Part shown: positions 43,237 to 50,613 of the stretch, piece after piece | Layout of the letters: each line of letters starts with the position of its first letter | How positions within the stretch are numbered: position 1 is the stretch's first letter | Origin: a virus | Taxonomy: Duplodnaviria > Caudoviricetes | IMG/VR virus record: IMGVR_UViG_3300027255_000165 | Strand: one strand, 5' to 3' | Length of the DNA stretch: 64,000 bases | Notes under the pieces: model-generated | Seen by the model: only the letters and a program-made list of their open reading frames with translations | Told to the model about the DNA's origin: nothing | The model's database searches: none | Made by a program: the position numbers and the translations under genes

Positions 43237-44322
43237 TTAGAGTTCAAGGATACCAGTGTTTAAGGGGTTGTTGATGTTATCGATCCACTCGTCGTCAATA
43301 TCTTTCAAGAATGCGATGTACAACTTGATACAGTTTTCAACGTCATCTCGATGAACCATCTCGACTGTGGTGTGCATGTACTTCAGCGGTGAGGCCAAGA
43401 TTGCAGTTGGAGTGTTTTCCAAAAAGAAAGCCATCGTGTCGTTGCCGTAAGATCCAACATGATGTTGTAATGGCAGCTCATTGGCTTTAGCAACCTCTTT
43501 CAGCTTGTTTAGAATGCCACGGTGATTCTGTGAAGTGTACTCTAATGAAGGACCTTTACCACCTTCAACTGGTCCGTGCTTGGCTTTATCCATCTTTGGG
43601 TGAGCCACGTTGTGACAAACATCATGCACTAGGGCCAAATCAGCTTGCAGTTCTTTTGCAATCTTCTTTGCACCGTACAAGCCAACTTCTTCTTGAACCG
43701 AGTTAACCACGTACAGGTCAAAATCCAACTTCTCACCATCAAGCGCCATGCGCTTTAGGACCTCAGCAATAATATAACCTCCAATCTTATTGTCCAACGA
43801 ACGGCCAACGTAGTAATCTCCAATCATGCTGAATTGTGTATCGAACGTAGCCAAGCATCCAACTTCAACTCCCAATTCAGCAGCTTGCTCGTCTGAAGAA
43901 ACACCTACATCAATCCACAATTCATGCGGTTCGTAACCTTTAGAAGTACGTTCGGTACGTGTGTGGATCGCAGGCCAACCAAACACACCTTTAACCTGTC
44001 GACCGTCGTGCGTATGAATGATAACTGTTTTAGAAGGGGCGATCATATTGTCTGAACCTCCATGGTGACGAACGCGGATGTAGCCGTCTTTTTCAATGTG
44101 TGTAATGATCCATGAGATCTCATCGCAGTGTGCTTCAATCACAACTTTCTTGGCTCCTTCTTTACCGCAACGGTAAACACCATAACCAGTGCCGTATGCG
44201 TCCATGTGAAGTGAATGTGAAAAGTCTGAAATGTAACGCATCCACATCTTTTGACCTTCTGTTTCCTGTGCAACAGGAGCGTAAGCATTTAAGTACGCTT
44301 CTAAAAACTTATGACTTTTCAT
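43237..44322 (-). CDS. M42 family metallopeptidase
   Basis: EAHCDE, SLDNKIG, VQEEVG, DVCH, KYMHT..E. Confidence 0.92.
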   Translation of the reverse strand: MKSHKFLEAYLNAYAPVAQETEGQKMWMRYISDFSHSLHMDAYGTGYGVYRCGKEGAKKVVIEAHCDEISWIITHIEKDGYIRVRHHGGSDNMIAPSKTVIIHTHDGRQVKGVFGWPAIHTRTERTSKGYEPHELWIDVGVSSDEQAAELGVEVGCLATFDTQFSMIGDYYVGRSLDNKIGGYIIAEVLKRMALDGEKLDFDLYVVNSVQEEVGLYGAKKIAKELQADLALVHDVCHNVAHPKMDKAKHGPVEGGKGPSLEYTSQNHRGILNKLKEVAKANELPLQHHVGSYGNDTMAFFLENTPTAILASPLKYMHTTVEMVHRDDVENCIKLYIAFLKDIDDEWIDNINNPLNTGILEL

Positions 44323-44326
44323 TATG

Positions 44327-44710
44327 TTATATGTTAAAGAATGAGTAAAGAACCGTTACGATTGCGGCGGCCGCAGCTAAAGAAAGGATAGCGTTGACTA
44401 CCATTTCTGAGTATTGAACTTGGTTTGGAGTGCGACCTTGATTCCAATTAGCAAAAGGCTCTTCAATTAAGACAAAGATAGCTTCAGTTGGACCAAAACT
44501 TTGAAGCTCTAAACCACGCATTTCAAGAATATCATCCAATAATTCGGGCTCATTCTCAACCATGTACGATACTTCATCGTATTCCTGAGTTGTCCAATCC
44601 TGGGATGGATCTAAGTTCAAAAAGCCCATGTAATCTTCTGAGCTTGAATCAAATTGATAATCGCTACGAATGCGATCGATTAGGGTGTTCAAAGTCTTTA
44701 AGTCTCTCAT
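44327..44710 (-). CDS. Hypothetical protein with C-terminal TM
   Basis: Behind a class M promoter. Confidence 0.65.
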   Translation of the reverse strand: MRDLKTLNTLIDRIRSDYQFDSSSEDYMGFLNLDPSQDWTTQEYDEVSYMVENEPELLDDILEMRGLELQSFGPTEAIFVLIEEPFANWNQGRTPNQVQYSEMVVNAILSLAAAAAIVTVLYSFFNI

Positions 44711-44765
44711 CAGTTAATCCTTTAAATGTATTGATTATACTATGAGATCGTAAAAAGTTTCAAAC

Positions 44766-44800
44766 AAAAAGAGTCCAGATTTAAGTAAACCTGGACTCTA
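44766..44800 (-). terminator. Terminator after tRNA-Asn
   Basis: AGAGTCCAG/CTGGACTCT plus T5. Confidence 0.7.
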
Positions 44801-44805
44801 GATTG

Positions 44806-44879
44806 CTCCCTCTGCTGGACTTGAACCAGCGACCCTCTGATTAACAGTCAGATGCTCTAACCAACTGAGCTAAGAAGGA
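44806..44879 (-). tRNA. tRNA-Asn(GTT)
   Basis: Cloverleaf; anticodon loop CTGTTAA; no CCA. Confidence 0.93.
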
Positions 44880-44898
44880 ATTCTTGCATGGCATGCTG

Positions 44899-44969
44899 TT
44901 ACCCCGGATAGATTCGAACTACCATTAAGTGGACCAAAACCACTTGTCCTGCCATTAGACGACGGGGTA
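44899..44969 (-). tRNA. tRNA-Gln(TTG)
   Basis: Acceptor TACCCCG/CGGGGTA; loop TTTTGGT. Confidence 0.92.
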
Positions 44970-44974
44970 ATATG

Positions 44975-45048
44975 TAGTCCTGACTGGACTCGAACCAGTG
45001 ACCCTTCGCGTATCAGGCGAATGCTCTAACCAACTGAGCTACAAGACT
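44975..45048 (-). tRNA. tRNA-Ile(GAT)
   Basis: Cloverleaf; loop CTGATAC. Confidence 0.94.
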
Positions 45049-45075
45049 AAAAGAAATTATATAACTCTTTTTTTG

Positions 45076-45148
<73 letters not shown>

Positions 45149-45207
45149 TGGTTATTCCGAAGAACAGTATTTATATACTAGATCTAAGGGTTGTTTCATT
45201 TGATAAT

Positions 45208-45240
45208 AAAAAAGCCCGGTCAAAGACCGGGCTTTAAAAA
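45208..45240 (-). terminator. Terminator after the 45260 gene
   Basis: AAAGCCCGGTC/GACCGGGCTTT plus T-run. Confidence 0.8.
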
Positions 45241-45259
45241 TAGTTAGTATGAAGTTAGA

Positions 45260-46966
45260 TTATTGAATATACTTGTAAATTCTAAGTTCAACAGTAGCTC
45301 CGGCAGCGTTAAGTGAAGTCTCAACACCTGCAACAATTGGACCTGTAAGAGCTGCATGCCTCGTAGGGTCAATAGAATAATTACCAGCGACAATTTCACC
45401 ATCTGCAATCGTTTCAAAATACTTCCCACCGTAACCGGTAAAATACACCGAGTAAGGTACTATGTTCTTAGAACCGTCAAATTGGTGATTAACTCCAGTG
45501 AATTTAATGTATCCTCCCGGTGCAATGCTTAACCATTCAGCTTGAACAGCTCCAGGAATATCACCGACACCCGCTGCTTTATAGGTACCTGCGCCGGATC
45601 CAGGCATAATACCTTTAATGCTTATGTCAGTGTGGTTGTGTACAATCAGAGTGTGAGGGCCTGTTCCTACGTTAACTTCAGTATATGTTGTAGGGAAATA
45701 AGATCCTGCAACTGAACCCGCAGGTGGCATTGGATCTGGTAGAGTAGTTGGTCTGTATACATTTACAAGTGTAACGTCAAAATGCGCAGGCGATGTAATC
45801 GCAATTCCGCCAGTGGCATTGCCAAGTGTGAATAGATTATTTCCAGAAACTGCTGAAATAAAGCTTATGTTGTTTTGTGCTCTGTTAGTTGATGCATAAA
45901 TCCATTTACCTGACGCATTTGCAAGCTCCAAGTTCATAGTGAATTTGTTAATATCGCTCAAAGGTACGTCAGTTAGAGTAACTGAATGACCAGGTCTAAT
46001 TGGAAGCCATGGAGCCGCAGTATTGCCGTTTCCCAAAGGAGTACCGCTAGGAACGCCATAAGACGCTAACCATGCCTTACCAGCTCCTGATCCAATCGCA
46101 GCATCTTCAATCCACACCTTTACAATAGGTTCAGTTGCTGATGCGTTAGTGATTGTAAGAGAGTGTCCACCCGCTGCACCCAAAGAATATGTAGGTTCTA
46201 CAGGAGCTGTTTGGAACTTAAGTGTTGTAGGAAGAGATGTATTAAGTACACCTGACGCTTCAACCACAACTAACATAGGATTGTAGCCCTGTCCAGTGCC
46301 TCCACCTGTAAGACTTAAATTAGTGTGCCAGATATCTCTGGCTATCCAACATACTGCATAATCACCAGAAGGCTGTTCAAGTCTAACAATATCGCCAGCT
46401 CTTAGATCAGCAAATGCAGCTGTAGCTGCGTTTTTAGTAAAAAAGATGCTAAATGAGTTAACCCCATTCACAGCTGGATAAGCCATAGTAGCCCATATGT
46501 TAGAGACCAGATCATTAGTTGAAGCTGTGAATCCACCGTCAGACCATGGTCTGAATTCTACTGTGTTGTCCCATCCTGCAGGACCTGGAGCAACAGCTGC
46601 AGCCCATGAAGAATAAAGACCAGCTGCGGTTTCAGCCCATACTTTTGCGGCAACAACGTCAGAGAAAAGAGGTTGACCAAGTCTACCTGCAAAGTGATTA
46701 ATCATTTCAAGAACTTTAGCATCACCTGCTCCGCCGTCTGACCAGAACATCGGGTGAGCATCGGCTTCGTTCGTGTAACCTAGTGTGAAAGAATCCGACC
46801 AAATTGTCGTTTCACCTGAAATTTCAGCAGGTGGCATAGCACCTTTGCCTAGAGCAAGTTCGGCTGGCATTGCACCCGTTCCGTCCCACTCGTAAAGTTT
46901 GTTTGCTTTAGCGTTAACGCTGCCTAGACCTGGATTAGAAGATCTAAAATATAATGGATTTGGCAT
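45260..46966 (-). CDS. 568-aa Gly/Ala/Thr-rich beta-type protein (putative virion structural/adhesin) with internal domain duplication
   Basis: GATATATA promoter upstream; segments G.HSLTITN...WL.I.PG.SV...V and G.HTLIVHN...WL.I.PGG.I...V repeat. Confidence 0.7.
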   Translation of the reverse strand: MPNPLYFRSSNPGLGSVNAKANKLYEWDGTGAMPAELALGKGAMPPAEISGETTIWSDSFTLGYTNEADAHPMFWSDGGAGDAKVLEMINHFAGRLGQPLFSDVVAAKVWAETAAGLYSSWAAAVAPGPAGWDNTVEFRPWSDGGFTASTNDLVSNIWATMAYPAVNGVNSFSIFFTKNAATAAFADLRAGDIVRLEQPSGDYAVCWIARDIWHTNLSLTGGGTGQGYNPMLVVVEASGVLNTSLPTTLKFQTAPVEPTYSLGAAGGHSLTITNASATEPIVKVWIEDAAIGSGAGKAWLASYGVPSGTPLGNGNTAAPWLPIRPGHSVTLTDVPLSDINKFTMNLELANASGKWIYASTNRAQNNISFISAVSGNNLFTLGNATGGIAITSPAHFDVTLVNVYRPTTLPDPMPPAGSVAGSYFPTTYTEVNVGTGPHTLIVHNHTDISIKGIMPGSGAGTYKAAGVGDIPGAVQAEWLSIAPGGYIKFTGVNHQFDGSKNIVPYSVYFTGYGGKYFETIADGEIVAGNYSIDPTRHAALTGPIVAGVETSLNAAGATVELRIYKYIQ

Positions 46967-47032
46967 TTTAACTTAAATGTTTTTTGTTTCTGTATATATC
47001 ACATTTAAGACGGTAAAACTTCATCGAGATGA

Positions 47033-47060
47033 AAAAACCCGGTCAAAAAGACCGGGTTTG
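47033..47060 (-). terminator. Terminator after tRNA-His
   Basis: AAACCCGGTC/GACCGGGTTT plus T-run. Confidence 0.8.
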
Positions 47061-47117
47061 ACGGGGGACCGCGTAAAAGCCGTTGCGATCGGCTTGTTGA
47101 TACGCAATTTATATATC

Positions 47118-47195
47118 TGGGGTGACTGATCGGAATCGAACCGACGACCTCTTGAACCACAATCAAGCGCTCTAACCAACTGAGCTACAACCACC
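47118..47195 (-). tRNA. tRNA-His(GTG) with encoded G-1 and CCA
   Basis: G+GTGGTTG/CAGTCAC C CCA; loop TTGTGGT. Confidence 0.95.
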
Positions 47196-47201
47196 ATTTA
47201 C

Positions 47202-47430
47202 ATTAACACTAGTAACCGGGATTCTGTTTTATTCCACCATTAATCTAAGCCACTACCTTGCCCAGGCTGCTCACCCCTATGGACTATTACGTGTTGCATC
47301 CTCGGTGGTATAACGGTTATAACCTTTCCAAAACTCTGTTTTTTTACTAGTTTTGGAAAGGTTATAACCTTCCACCTTAAGCAGTGATGTCCCGAGTTTC
47401 CTCTCTTTCGAGCGATGGATCAGTGTTAAT
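47202..47430 (-). ncRNA. rnpB: RNase P RNA (type A-like, ~229 nt, S-domain replaced by a 21-bp hairpin)
   Basis: P4 strands GAGGAAACTCGGGAC and AACAGAATCCCGGTTAC; P1 ATTAACACT/AGTGTTAAT; P2 TCCATC/GGTGGA; P3 CTC-GAAA-GAG; P5 CATC/GATG; P6 CTGCT/AGCAG; P7 GGTGG/CCACC; P15 CAC/GTG with AGGTA. Confidence 0.85.
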
Positions 47431-47433
47431 TAT

Positions 47434-47637
47434 TTATTCAAAGCTAACGTGGCTGTGAATAGATGTAATTGTACAATGTGGATCAAACTGACATGTTTGT
47501 TTAGAAGCCCACGTTGAAGTGTCAACTAAATCATGATTAGAAGAGCATGAAGTAGATAACATTAGTGTTGCCAATGAAATTGACGCGATAGATAGTGTTG
47601 AAAAAATCATCACTAAAAAGTTCTTAAGATGTTTCAT
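47434..47637 (-). CDS. Small lipoprotein-like protein
   Basis: Hydrophobic signal ending LSTSC; GATATATAAG upstream. Confidence 0.65.
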   Translation of the reverse strand: MKHLKNFLVMIFSTLSIASISLATLMLSTSCSSNHDLVDTSTWASKQTCQFDPHCTITSIHSHVSFE

Positions 47638-47712
47638 AGTCCCAATGTTATTTTAATGTTATTAACTTATATATCAGTATTAACATATTGTTTACATTGG
47701 GTTAGATCTTAG

Positions 47713-47787
47713 TAGCGGGTGTGGGAGTCGAACCCACGTCGTTTGGCTTATGAGACCAGGCTGGAACCACCTCCAGTCCAACCCGCA
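47713..47787 (-). tRNA. tRNA-Met(CAT), initiator-like (1:72 mismatch)
   Basis: TGCGGGT/ACCCGCT, loop CTCATAA; lacks the three G-C anticodon-stem pairs. Confidence 0.85.
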
Positions 47788-47794
47788 ATGTTAG

Positions 47795-47867
47795 TGGACT
47801 CGGGCAGAATCGAACTGCCGACACATGGATTTTCAGTCCATTGCTCTACCAACTGAGCTACGAGTCC
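47795..47867 (-). tRNA. tRNA-Phe(GAA)
   Basis: GGACTCG/CGAGTCC; loop CTGAAAA. Confidence 0.95.
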
Positions 47868-47871
47868 ATGG

Positions 47872-47990
47872 GGAAGAGGCTCTGGGTCTTTCAGGGTTTC
47901 TGATAGATGATTTGTTTACGCTCTGATTACTCCAAACCCTTTTTCACCATTTTAACACCATCATCTATTACAGCTTGCACTGCCTCTTCC
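47872..47990 (-). ncRNA. Candidate ~120-nt structured RNA between tRNA-Tyr and tRNA-Phe
   Basis: Closing helix GGAAGAGGC/GCCTCTTCC, inner helix ATAGATGAT/ATCATCTAT, complementary AGGGTTT/AAACCCT. Confidence 0.6.
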
Positions 47991-47993
47991 TTG

Positions 47994-48075
47994 TGGGAGT
48001 AGAAGGACTCGAACCTCCGATGTCGTTAGACGATTGATTTACAGTCAACTGCAATAGCCACTATGCGATACTCCC
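47994..48075 (-). tRNA. tRNA-Tyr(GTA)
   Basis: GGGAGTA/TACTCCC; loop CTGTAAA; long variable arm. Confidence 0.94.
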
Positions 48076-48079
48076 ATTG

Positions 48080-48152
48080 TGATCCCTCCGGGGCTAGAAC
48101 CCGGGACCCGTACATTAAAAGTGTACTGCTCTACCAACTGAGCTAAAGAATC
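48080..48152 (-). tRNA. tRNA-Lys(TTT)
   Basis: GATTCTT/AGGGATC; loop CTTTTAA; T-loop TTCTAG variant. Confidence 0.92.
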
Positions 48153-48173
48153 ATTACCACCAAGTCAAAGACC

Positions 48174-48368
48174 TCAGACATCCATCTGCAATTCGTGAAA
48201 GCACTCTTTGCAAAGGAACATCATGTTGTGTTCGTTACGGACATCTGCATCAAAAGGATTCTCAGTCCAAACTCCCAACTTTTGTTCGCAACTTTCGCAA
48301 GTATCAACCAGGTGGCCGAACATTTGCTTAGCTGTTTCTTCGTTTGTCATCATCGTTTTCATAGTCAT
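48174..48368 (-). CDS. Small zinc-finger-like protein
   Basis: CESC...CKEC; class E promoter upstream. Confidence 0.6.
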   Translation of the reverse strand: MTMKTMMTNEETAKQMFGHLVDTCESCEQKLGVWTENPFDADVRNEHNMMFLCKECFHELQMDV

Positions 48369-48491
48369 AAATTTAATTAAGGTTTACTGTCTCCGTTAAA
48401 TTTGAACCACTATCTGATGATTACTGGGCTAATATACAACAAAAACTTGACCCGGTAAAACTTTTACGAAACTTTTTTACGGTTGCGATTG

Positions 48492-48565
48492 AGGTGAGTA
48501 GTGGATTCGAACCACTGAACGTCTGTTTTGCAAACAGCTCCCTTAGGCCACTCGAGCAACTCACC
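48492..48565 (-). tRNA. tRNA-Cys(GCA)
   Basis: GGTGAGT/ACTCACC; loop TTGCAAA; starts directly after the terminator U-tract. Confidence 0.92.
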
Positions 48566-48649
48566 AAAAAAAGAAAGGCCTCAATCTTTCGATGAGGCCT
48601 TTCAAGAACGTTAAGTAAAACAGTACTTACATTTTCACATAGGCCTCAT
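48566..48649 (-). promoter_or_regulatory. Terminator/antiterminator pair (attenuator) in front of tRNA-Cys
   Basis: Terminator GAAAGGCCTCA/TGAGGCCTTTC plus T7 (48566-48603); ATGAGGCCT at 48641-48649, inside the leader ORF, is complementary to the terminator 5' arm. Confidence 0.75.
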
Positions 48650-48704
48650 TCTCACCTGGATACCAGATGCAGAATTTATTGTTATGTTGAATTAGTGTAC
48701 GCAT
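48627..48704 (-). CDS. Leader peptide MRTLIQHNNKFCIWYPGENEAYVKM
   Basis: Manually translated; GATATATAAG and an A-rich leader lie upstream. Confidence 0.7.
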   Translation of the reverse strand: MRTLIQHNNKFCIWYPGENEAYVKM

Positions 48705-48725
48705 TGTTTTAGCTTTGTTTGAGAC

Positions 48726-48878
48726 TTATATATCTGAATCTTTCTTTGTTTCACCACAGTCACATGGTTTAATTGTGGCGATGGTTGTATTAACTACCCA
48801 TGCAACACACATAACCAAGAATAGTGATGCGAATGGGTGTTCTGCGATAATGTCTACGAGTTGTGCTAACGAGTTCAT
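48726..48878 (-). CDS. Small TM protein (50 aa, MNSLAQLVDIIAEHPFASLFLVMC...)
   Basis: Manually translated; its last codons GAT ATA TAA coincide with the GATATATA motif. Confidence 0.55.
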   Translation of the reverse strand: MNSLAQLVDIIAEHPFASLFLVMCVAWVVNTTIATIKPCDCGETKKDSDI

Positions 48879-48882
48879 GTCT

Positions 48883-49665
48883 TTAAAAGTCTACGCCTTC
48901 TACTGGCTGAGTTTGAGAATTGCCAGCTGCTTCAAACCGGAGCTGACTTACGGGATTCCACTTTAATGCTAACGCGCTCATGTTTTGATTGTACATTGAG
49001 CGAAGATCTTGTCGTGGGTGCCAAGTATACGTTGCTGGCAAAAATTCGTCTGATACGATGATATTTTGCTTTAACGTCTGTAGATTGGTTTCAACCAGCT
49101 TGCTGATTCCAGATTTATTCAATACATAACAATGTGTTTGATATGAGTAACCTGGACGAATAAAGTTAGTTAAACCTACGTTGAAATCTTTGACCATTGG
49201 ATGATTAACCAACAATCTCGATAAGAAGATGAGATCCCAATCATAGTTCTGTAATTCAGTAAAGACGCTCCAATCTATCGTTTCGATTGGATTGAAGTCA
49301 TCTTCTATGATTAAGATGTTTTCATAACCATTTCGGTATGCATCTTCCCAGATTTTAATGTGGGAGCAGATTCCACCGGCTTCACCAGTTGTTACTGGCC
49401 GATTCCACCATTCGTTGTTAGTGCCTTGAGCCCAATTATCATAGAACTTGATTCCATATTCATTTCGACCCTCCTCTGTCTTAAATAACTGGCGACCATT
49501 AACTCCTTCAATAATTTTATAAGGTGTTCCTGTGGGAACCCCTAGCCTGTTTAAACGATCAATTAACGAGTCATAACTCTGTTGACTATGATCTAAGGTA
49601 ATCAGGTAAATGTTATCAATCTTCATTCTTCTTGAAAATGATTTCTTCACCGTTCTCGTCATCAA
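48883..49665 (-). CDS. GT25 glycosyltransferase, procollagen-galactosyltransferase (COLGALT)-like
   Basis: GVNG, T.GE.G...SH..IW, ILIIEDD, WDLIFL.R, YSY.TH.Y.L...G..KL, DEFLP....HP. Confidence 0.85.
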   Translation of the reverse strand: MMTRTVKKSFSRRMKIDNIYLITLDHSQQSYDSLIDRLNRLGVPTGTPYKIIEGVNGRQLFKTEEGRNEYGIKFYDNWAQGTNNEWWNRPVTTGEAGGICSHIKIWEDAYRNGYENILIIEDDFNPIETIDWSVFTELQNYDWDLIFLSRLLVNHPMVKDFNVGLTNFIRPGYSYQTHCYVLNKSGISKLVETNLQTLKQNIIVSDEFLPATYTWHPRQDLRSMYNQNMSALALKWNPVSQLRFEAAGNSQTQPVEGVDF

Positions 49666-49960
49666 TCCAATCTATCACACCGTCTTGACGAAGACGAAGT
49701 AACGATTCATAGATGTCAATCTTAATTGTAATGTCATCGAATGCTTCAGCATCTAATTGTAGGTCTCCGTAATTGACTAGATTATCGGTCGCGGCTTCAC
49801 AAACCAAATCATGAAAAATATCTTCATGGGTTTGTGTTTTGAACAATACGTCATCATGGTGAACATGTTCATCAATGTGACGAACTCCCTGCACCATCTT
49901 GTCAGCGTATTCTTTAACTCGAGGAGTCCATTCGGTTGTGAAAAGATCTTCTAGTTTCAT
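49616..49960 (-). CDS. Hypothetical protein
   Basis: Acidic 114-aa ORF. Confidence 0.65.
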   Translation of the reverse strand: MKLEDLFTTEWTPRVKEYADKMVQGVRHIDEHVHHDDVLFKTQTHEDIFHDLVCEAATDNLVNYGDLQLDAEAFDDITIKIDIYESLLRLRQDGVIDWIDDENGEEIIFKKNED

Positions 49961-49962
49961 GA

Positions 49963-50613
49963 TTAAAAGTTTACTTCTACTCCGATTGCTTCAACAATTA
50001 GTGTACGGCCACGACGAATACGATTCTTAATGGTTTGAAGAGGAAGGTCGTGCTTCTTGGCAATGTCTTCATACTTCATGTTACCGATCAAACGATCAAC
50101 TAAGATGTCTTTGTATAAAGGCTTGAGCTCGCGAATTGCTTTCAATGCATTTTCATACGTATCGTTCAATTCACTTTCTTCTTCGTACCAATCCATTTCA
50201 GATTTGTAAGCTGCATCATCGATTAATTCTTCAAGAGCACGTACATTATTCATGCTTGTAACTTCTACTCCGTATTCGTCACGAAGACGATCGATTGAAG
50301 TCTTACGATTACGTTCGCGAATGTAGTACAAAGATTCGTTGTAAGCAATGCGATATAACCAAGTGGTGATCTGATACTGTGGATCATACTGATCGATCTT
50401 AGTCCACATCTTAATTAAAGTGTTGACTGCGATGTCTTCAGCGATATCACTATCTTTGATGATATTCTTGACGTAGTTTTGAAGGCCTGGCTTTACCTTA
50501 CGGTAGAGAGCGGTGTAATCTTCGTGTGAACGAGTTGCAATGTAATTTTCTGTGAGTTCGCGATAAGTTGCCATATTCTTTGTTTTTTGGTGGTTACTGG
50601 GTAAATATAACAA
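49963..50613 (-). CDS. Sigma-70/ECF-family RNA polymerase sigma factor
   Basis: Region 2 AEDIA...LIKMW.KI..YD....TTWLYRIAYN; region 4 HTH Y.DIA.....PL.TIKNRIRRGR. Confidence 0.92.
   Translation of the reverse strand: MLYLPSNHQKTKNMATYRELTENYIATRSHEDYTALYRKVKPGLQNYVKNIIKDSDIAEDIAVNTLIKMWTKIDQYDPQYQITTWLYRIAYNESLYYIRERNRKTSIDRLRDEYGVEVTSMNNVRALEELIDDAAYKSEMDWYEEESELNDTYENALKAIRELKPLYKDILVDRLIGNMKYEDIAKKHDLPLQTIKNRIRRGRTLIVEAIGVEVNF

Follow-up and report, generated by a model that had tools for sequence, protein, structure and literature searches.

Leader-peptide attenuation and a comparable unit before a phage tRNA array

In E. coli trpL, hisL, pheL, leuL, thrL and ilvL, as well as in pheST, a short promoter-proximal open reading frame (ORF) is followed by a terminator located before the regulated genes, and in pheST it is a gene of the translation apparatus that stands under leader-peptide attenuation. 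Here we describe a unit of similar layout, only about 170 nt long, at the head of the transfer RNA (tRNA) gene array of a marine phage (Caudoviricetes). The unit lies on the minus strand of a 64,000-nt stretch of DNA (hereafter the window), which is itself the minus strand of positions 104841–168840 in the 170,561-bp IMG/VR virus record IMGVR_UViG_3300027255_000165. Based on the elements of this unit and on their conservation in related sequences, we hypothesize, with a probability of roughly 0.6, that it is a ribosome-dependent (leader-ORF) transcription attenuator, and that the output of tRNA is probably tied to the performance of the translating ribosome.

The likeness to the trp/his-type leaders extends to the antiterminator strand, which is located at the 3' end of the ORF, and possibly to an upstream strand that could sequester the antiterminator. 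The phage unit differs from these leaders in being phage-borne and served by a late phage promoter, in carrying the antiterminator inside the ORF and not after the stop codon, in lacking both a run of cognate codons and a Shine-Dalgarno sequence, and in having tRNAs instead of enzymes as products. Because the cognate codon run is missing, the unit is functionally closer to leaders which respond to a general slowdown of translation (PMC2965389), and these appear to be its best functional analogy. As cited in PMC2965389, the ermC leader senses general translation slowdown and not one amino acid. For ermC and pyrBI alike, and conceivably for the phage leader, the outcome is set by the position and speed of the ribosome on an ORF without an amino-acid-specific run. 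Nevertheless, it is translation and not termination that ermC controls, with a drug-bound ribosome as the trigger; in pyrBI, what is sensed is the polymerase–ribosome gap set by UTP, and neither of them gates tRNA genes. T-box riboswitches also use alternative terminator and antiterminator helices, report on tRNA status and regulate translation-related genes; however, they bind uncharged tRNA directly, extend over ~200–300 nt, carry the T-box sequence and a specifier loop, and need no ORF. An Rfam scan of window positions 44000–50000 at E ≤ 1 detected no T-box or other leader family over 48566–48735.

The tRNA clusters of phages T4 and T5 contain, among the tRNA genes, small ORFs, promoters, terminators and stable RNAs other than tRNA, and the array analysed here is likewise a mixture of this kind. 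We know of no leader-ORF attenuator for clusters of the T4/T5 type, and a full-text literature search found no attenuator for phage or cellular tRNA operons. In most accounts, phage tRNA genes are treated as constitutive supplements to codon usage or as decoys against tRNA-cleaving defences, and to our knowledge almost nothing is known about the control of their expression. If the attenuator reading is true, this would be the first case known to us of tRNA genes under ribosome-mediated attenuation, and the virus would tie its tRNA supply to translation performance late in infection. It would also extend leader-peptide attenuation to a system devoid of Shine-Dalgarno sequences, probably in a Bacteroidota host; such attenuation has been proposed in Shine-Dalgarno-less Flavobacterium (PMC9723704).

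Elements of the unit and the matching of antiterminator and terminator

Transcription of the unit would start from the late promoter motif GATATATAA, and the first ATG of the predicted transcript, 22 nt past the motif and thus at the modal spacing for the genes of this phage, would open a leader ORF of 25 codons (Table 1). The genome contains 25 copies of GATATATA on the coding strand and none on the opposite strand. Nearly all copies are intergenic and precede an ATG by 4–56 nt, typically by 18–31 nt. Since the genes behind them include those for a tail sheath, a head maturation protease, tail fibres and structural proteins of the virion, GATATATA is, judged by its placement, a late-gene promoter motif, comparable to TATAAATA of T4. 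The distance from the promoter motif to the leader is the same in all relatives carrying the unit.

Between the leader ORF and tRNA-Cys lies a predicted terminator with an 11–13-bp GC-rich stem, a GAAA loop and a T7 tract, the fold of which (−20.5 kcal/mol, z −5.3) was matched by none of 200 shuffles. The original prediction, made from the letters of the window, had placed the motif, the 25-codon ORF and the terminator on the minus strand, and all three are present there. It had also left 1 nt between the T-run and tRNA-Cys; this needs correction, as the T-run touches the tRNA directly. The space between terminator and tRNA-Cys is too small for a promoter, and tRNA-Cys would therefore be made only by transcription passing the hairpin.

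The same prediction claimed a 9-nt complementarity between the ORF and the 5' arm of the terminator, and ATGAGGCCT indeed complements AGGCCTCAT exactly. A duplex as stable as theirs (−16.4 kcal/mol) was reached in 0 of 2000 dinucleotide shuffles (p < 0.0005). Among the 28 terminator-like hairpins on the coding strand of the genome, this is the sole outlier with regard to an upstream complement (z −5.4); the next-best hairpin has a p of 0.01 and the remainder look uniform. The pairing of ATGAGGCCT with AGGCCTCAT is thus more than a chance match. When the nascent RNA is cut just past the 5' arm of the terminator, the predicted fold contains the antiterminator pairing, and the full-length RNA is predicted to fold into the terminator.

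These elements can be joined into a model in which the late promoter yields a transcript with the leader ORF, whose last third contains the 9-nt segment that can pair with the 5' arm of the terminator. In the nascent RNA, the antiterminator pairing would form first. A smoothly translating ribosome would cover or melt the segment, upon which the terminator would fold and transcription would end at 48566–48572. Were the ribosome absent, or held within the first ~14 codons, the segment would stay free and the polymerase would continue through tRNA-Cys as far as tRNA-His. Overall, this would amount to a negative feedback, with poor translation resulting in more phage tRNA, and the signal is most likely the overall elongation capacity rather than a defined panel of tRNAs.

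Table 1. Position of the unit, its parts and the features behind it (window coordinates)
Feature	Position	Strand	Remark
Late promoter motif GATATATAA	48734-48726	minus	Overlaps the stop codon of the upstream 50-aa ORF
A-rich 5' leader without Shine-Dalgarno sequence	48725-48705	minus	Block AAAGCTAAAACA before the ATG is identical in the window and L016
Leader ORF MRTLIQHNNKFCIWYPGENEAYVKM, 25 codons + TAA	48704-48627	minus	From the ORF listing
Segment 1 TTCAACATA, codons 5-8	48691-48683	minus	Candidate anti-antiterminator strand; pairs just 3' of the antiterminator
Central hairpin core CATCTGGTATCCAG inside the ORF	48669-48656	minus	Possible pause hairpin; present in every predicted fold
Putative antiterminator strand ATGAGGCCT, codons 19-22	48649-48641	minus	Perfect complement of 48600-48592
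Predicted terminator stem-loop	48603-48573	minus	5' arm includes AGGCCTCAT at 48600-48592
T7 tract of the terminator	48572-48566	minus	Adjoins tRNA-Cys directly
tRNA-Cys(GCA), putative first gated gene	48565-48491	minus	ARAGORN; Rfam 50.6 bits
Second-class promoter-like element AAAAAAGTTT ... GTATATTA	48478-48430	minus	Before the 64-aa gene; from the listing of promoter-like sites
Read-through stretch to the next terminator	48368-47035	minus	64-aa ORF, tRNA-Lys, Tyr, Phe, Met, 67-aa ORF, RNase P-like RNA, tRNA-His
Next terminator	47059-47035	minus	

Six related metagenomic sequences carry the same leader/terminator/tRNA architecture where their tRNA arrays begin; together with the window, they represent two diverged subfamilies. 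Three of them are close to the window: L017 (98.6% identical, without the upstream 50-aa gene), L014 and the fragment L015 (about 95% identical, with an extra tRNA-Trp after tRNA-Cys) and L016 (about 80% identical, with a different upstream gene). The diverged subfamily comprises L018, L036, the array of which contains 18 tRNAs, and L152. Here, a GATATATAG promoter and a 29–34-codon ORF starting M(R/Q)..QHI are followed by a different terminator and a different tRNA-Cys, which heads an array of 10 or more tRNAs. In all seven variants (the window and these six), the array begins with the unit, and no other gene stands between the leader and tRNA-Cys. This conservation supports the architecture proposed originally, consisting of a promoter, a leader ORF and, inside this ORF, an antiterminator that excludes the terminator.

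In each variant, the complementary segment is found in the last third of the ORF, and it follows the 5' arm of that variant's own terminator. The duplex with the own arm amounts to −13.7 kcal/mol in L014 and L017 (shuffle p 0.003–0.006), −15.3 kcal/mol in L016 (p 0.0045), −13.1 kcal/mol in L018 (p 0.01), −18.0 kcal/mol in L036 (p 0.0005) and −18.3 kcal/mol in L152 (p < 0.0005), and arms swapped between the subfamilies reach only −4 to −11 kcal/mol. Within the antiterminator segment, L014 and L017 share a C-to-U change that keeps a G-U pair. In the series L018, L152, L036, one position of the antiterminator helix reads A-U, G-U and G-C, with a change from U-A to C-G at this place in the terminator stem. 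The terminator stem is invariant in L014 and L017 and has one compensatory change from A-U to G-C in L016. Four compensatory pairs between the subfamilies, read by eye, were dropped, because the MAFFT register offsets the helices by one column; our claims are therefore limited to the per-sequence complementarity, the swap test and the A-U/G-U/G-C series within the subfamily.

The consensus folds add helices around the ORF. RNAalifold predicts a helix between columns 37–41 and 86–90 that involves segment 1, with one compensatory change from U-A to C-G in L016. In the few sequences of the window type, codons 5–8 pair beside the antiterminator and not over it; in L018 and L036, of the other type, a predicted helix AGAGC:GCTCT joins codons 4–6 to the antiterminator strand, which is the classic 1:2 pairing. 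A long-range helix between the start region and the region past the stop codon, seen in single-sequence folds, was discarded for lack of support by the consensus fold.

Searches of curated GenBank phage records with megablast, blastn and tblastn remained without a match, and a 20-mer from tRNA-Cys had no match in IMG/VR. Scanning for the combined promoter and leader pattern returned 89 matches in prokaryote genomes, none of them real, and 27 matches in IMG/VR, with L036 as the only real one. In L014 and L016, tRNA-Trp(CCA) follows 26 nt after tRNA-Cys (L014:1667–1764). At this place, the window (48480–48491) and L017 show a clean deletion of ~93 nt, and the phage is therefore without tRNA-Trp although its leader keeps a conserved TGG codon.

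Translation of the leader and competing explanations

Across six variants, frame 0 of the leader contains no stop codon, and frames 1 and 2 contain 1–6. The ORF ends inside the complementary segment or 6–16 nt past it. A comparison of the window ORF with that of L016 shows codon-sized insertions and deletions (indels) as well as Leu, Ile, His and Val codons that are altered synonymously; between L036 and L152, four changes are synonymous and two non-synonymous. Metatranscriptome and DNA runs, available as contigs only, were the source of natural variants. Two metatranscriptome assemblies carry a 1-nt insertion after codon 17, by which a UGA falls inside the antiterminator. Consequently, the C-terminal part of the peptide is dispensable, yet the ORF still reaches the putative switch, and the leader peptide as such seems unimportant. 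What is conserved, as far as these comparisons go, is an open frame running from the start into or just past the switch, as a leader ORF would need it and a functional micro-protein would not tolerate it. We conclude that the leader ORF is probably translated.

The DNA runs X11 and X13 each contain two co-existing alleles of the leader region (window 48652–48774), the differences being located at 48682 (Asn8Ser), at 48744 and, within the 5' leader, at 48712 and 48715; the region is thus polymorphic within single samples. From an RNA library, a single contig of 184 nt covers the antiterminator, the terminator and tRNA-Cys. Keeping in mind that contigs show neither RNA ends nor regulation, it may be taken as a weak hint of read-through.

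Several observations weigh against attenuation by a translating ribosome. In the full-length RNA, the terminator state is ~13.6 kcal/mol more stable than the antiterminator state, and the switch therefore depends on unproven kinetics. The distance from the antiterminator to the stop codon ranges over 0–16 nt, and in L036 a terminating ribosome may leave the segment uncovered. All three substitutions that separate L014 and L017 from the window are non-synonymous, second-position changes. A run of cognate regulatory codons, the hallmark of the trp, his, phe and leu leaders, is not present. Elsewhere in the genome, hairpins with T-runs adjoin tRNA-Leu and tRNA-Thr without any ORF, and such hairpins may therefore serve processing and not termination. 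In L152, a second-class promoter-like element sits between the terminator and tRNA-Cys, which makes the array of L152 independent of read-through. Finally, relatives found through their GT25 and 64-aa genes (59–77% protein identity) have tRNA arrays without the unit, so that the element is confined to two sublineages.

With regard to the signal, the original prediction held that the leader codons form a panel matching the downstream tRNAs; with any of these depleted, for instance by host anticodon nucleases, the ribosome would stall and replenishment would set in. The count behind this proposal was reproduced: 11 of the 12 codons at positions 5–16 are read by downstream tRNAs, or 12 if Trp is counted. 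Relative to dinucleotide shuffles that stay open, the window leader is enriched in such codons (p 0.002 for the best 12-codon run, p 0.03 for the whole ORF), and of the 12-codon windows in real genes of the phage, a mere 0.015% attain its level. L016 retains the enrichment via different codons (p 0.004–0.013), and the tRNA-Trp right after tRNA-Cys in L014 and L016 matches the conserved TGG. Furthermore, the rare Cys and Trp codons are present in all leaders, each of which has at least one Cys codon, at non-homologous positions, with Cys making up 0.6% of the proteome. However, the enrichment is limited to the subfamily of the window and L016. The leaders of L018 and L036 show none for their own arrays (p 0.3–0.6). 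There are no tandem regulatory codons, the only repetition being one Asn pair, and in close relatives an Asn and an Ile codon have changed to AGC (Ser), for which no reading tRNA was found in this genome or on the sequenced parts of L014 and L017. Since the genome encodes 18 tRNAs, 70% of its codons count as matched; for the same reason, the statement that all ten tRNA identities of the array occur in the leader, while standing as a count, is less specific than it looked. The enriched set consists simply of AT-rich two-codon amino acids, the test was devised once the pattern was already known, and nothing in the data ties anticodon nucleases to the unit. Taken together, we regard the panel as unsupported and unlikely. 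A related proposal, which we put forward tentatively and consider unlikely, portrays the phage as running a homeostatic sensor of decoding capacity, in which ribosomes slowed by scarce tRNAs switch on late transcription of the tRNA array. The scarcity could result from codon-usage mismatch, host shut-off or host tRNA-cleaving defences, and the candidates for the sensed tRNAs are Cys, Trp and those of the AT-rich two-codon families. If this were true, the tRNA supply would be an on-demand counter-measure and not a constitutive one.

Other accounts dispense with a ribosome-operated switch altogether. As promoter, ORF and terminator resemble a complete gene, the unit could be a self-contained late one, either a micro-protein gene or a small structured RNA, with tRNA-Cys stemming from leaky read-through or upstream transcripts and the complement serving, for instance, transcript stability or the ORF's own translation. 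A peptide pattern, QH...[IL]W[FY]...P, is common to both subfamilies, and the L036 and L152 peptides are identical over 23 residues; yet the conserved blocks are equally conserved as nucleotides and fall within predicted helices, the C-terminal third is exchanged in the natural frameshift variant, and close relatives differ by non-synonymous changes only. A self-contained unit would also agree with the strong overall structure of the leader (z −6.6), with the late promoter, ~60 nt and terminator that follow tRNA-His without an ORF at 47117–47035, and with the separate promoter of the L152 array. Nevertheless, neither form of such a unit explains why the ORF segment tracks the 5' arm of the terminator in every lineage, or why the position directly before the array-heading tRNA-Cys is constant, and we consider this account unlikely. 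Alternatively, the attenuator might be set by a trans-acting factor (an RNA-binding protein of phage or host, a small RNA or a tRNA) bound to the central hairpin or the antiterminator, the ORF being incidental. Alternative terminator and antiterminator helices are equally typical of TRAP, PyrR and T-box systems, and the phage has its own sigma factor and other RNA elements nearby. Consensus folds place a central hairpin within the ORF in both subfamilies, and its 14-nt core (48669–48656) is 100% conserved between the window and L016 with flanks that diverge; however, in L018, L036 and L152 this relative place is taken by a hairpin of different sequence. Moreover, frame 0 is the only reading frame kept open in all variants, with indels of codon size and synonymous substitutions, the start codon stands at the standard promoter distance, and, noise aside, the leader has no match at E ≤ 1 to any Rfam family, including the T-box, all of which renders an incidental ORF quite improbable. 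As to chance, the hairpin would be the terminator of the upstream operon, with an accidental ORF and complement. AGGCCT is palindromic, so that the upstream 9-mer is also a near-repeat of the 3' arm of the terminator, and an open frame of 25 codons alone has a probability of ~0.15. Against this stand the outlier position of the unit among the 28 hairpins, the dedicated late promoter between the upstream gene and the hairpin, and the recurrence of the arrangement with matched changes in six other sequences from two subfamilies; on the comparative data, chance juxtaposition is very unlikely.

Genome setting, further promoters and neighbouring RNA elements

The record has a GC content of 39.8% and an estimated completeness of 70%, and almost all genes of the 170-kb sequence are oriented on a single strand. 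At 56 of 64,000 positions, the window differs from the corresponding stretch of the genome record; the 401 bases used in searches (48400–48800) are identical. The whole record contains 18 tRNA genes, 11 in the window and the others in a second cluster (Arg, Leu, Ser, Thr, Gly, Ala, Glu). Shine-Dalgarno sequences are virtually absent from the real genes of the phage (GGAG before 1 of 122), and the upstream regions are A-rich, a pattern known from Bacteroidota and their phages. The gene starts thus suggest that the host probably belongs to the Bacteroidota. A sigma factor is encoded by the phage at 49963–50613, just upstream of the unit.

Behind tRNA-Cys, the second-class element is predicted to be an independent entry point for the downstream tRNAs (Table 1). 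It is conserved before the homologous 64-aa gene in L008, L009 and L018. Many unrelated contigs from DNA runs share with the window only 30–45 nt of this element (48478–48430), and the predicted entry point is a highly repeated regulatory sequence across related phages.

Immediately upstream of tRNA-His, 235 nt on the minus strand (47197–47431) match RNase P RNA class A (RF00010; model positions 1–367) with 46.2 bits and an E-value of 3.8e-12, a score below the gathering score of 100. The match may represent a miniaturised phage RNase P-like RNA within the tRNA array. Past tRNA-His, the ORF-less stretch at 47117–47035 (minus strand) consists of a second GATATATAA, ~60 nt with a small hairpin and the terminator at 47059–47035, and it could encode a short non-coding RNA of the late phase or act as a decoy unit.

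Hairpins flush against the 5' ends of tRNAs are recurrent in the genome of the phage. Outside the window, at genome positions 69686–69765 and ~70225–70271, a GC-rich hairpin with a T/A-run abuts the 5' ends of tRNA-Leu(UAG) and tRNA-Thr(UGU), respectively, and the hairpin of tRNA-Leu lies downstream of a promoter-like TATAAATA motif, without an ORF. There are seven copies of TATAAATA on the coding strand of the genome and none on the opposite strand; those at genome positions 69509, 69686, 71380 and 123666 (window ~45175) are located upstream of tRNA-Arg, Leu, Glu and Pro. By its distribution, TATAAATA resembles a second class of strand-specific promoter, one that serves tRNA genes. The recurring GTTCTTTGAC motif was rejected as a promoter of tRNA-Cys, for it is too near the mature 5' ends and has no one-strand enrichment in the genome. 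Another motif, GTTCTTTGACAT(A/G)TT(G/A)G, precedes several tRNA genes of this phage group by 15–45 nt (L018:1325–1345 and 1672–1692, L152:1350–1370, L014 ~1670–1690, genome 69874) and has no strand bias genome-wide. As it is too near the mature 5' ends for a promoter, it might serve as a processing signal or mark the boundary of a cassette.

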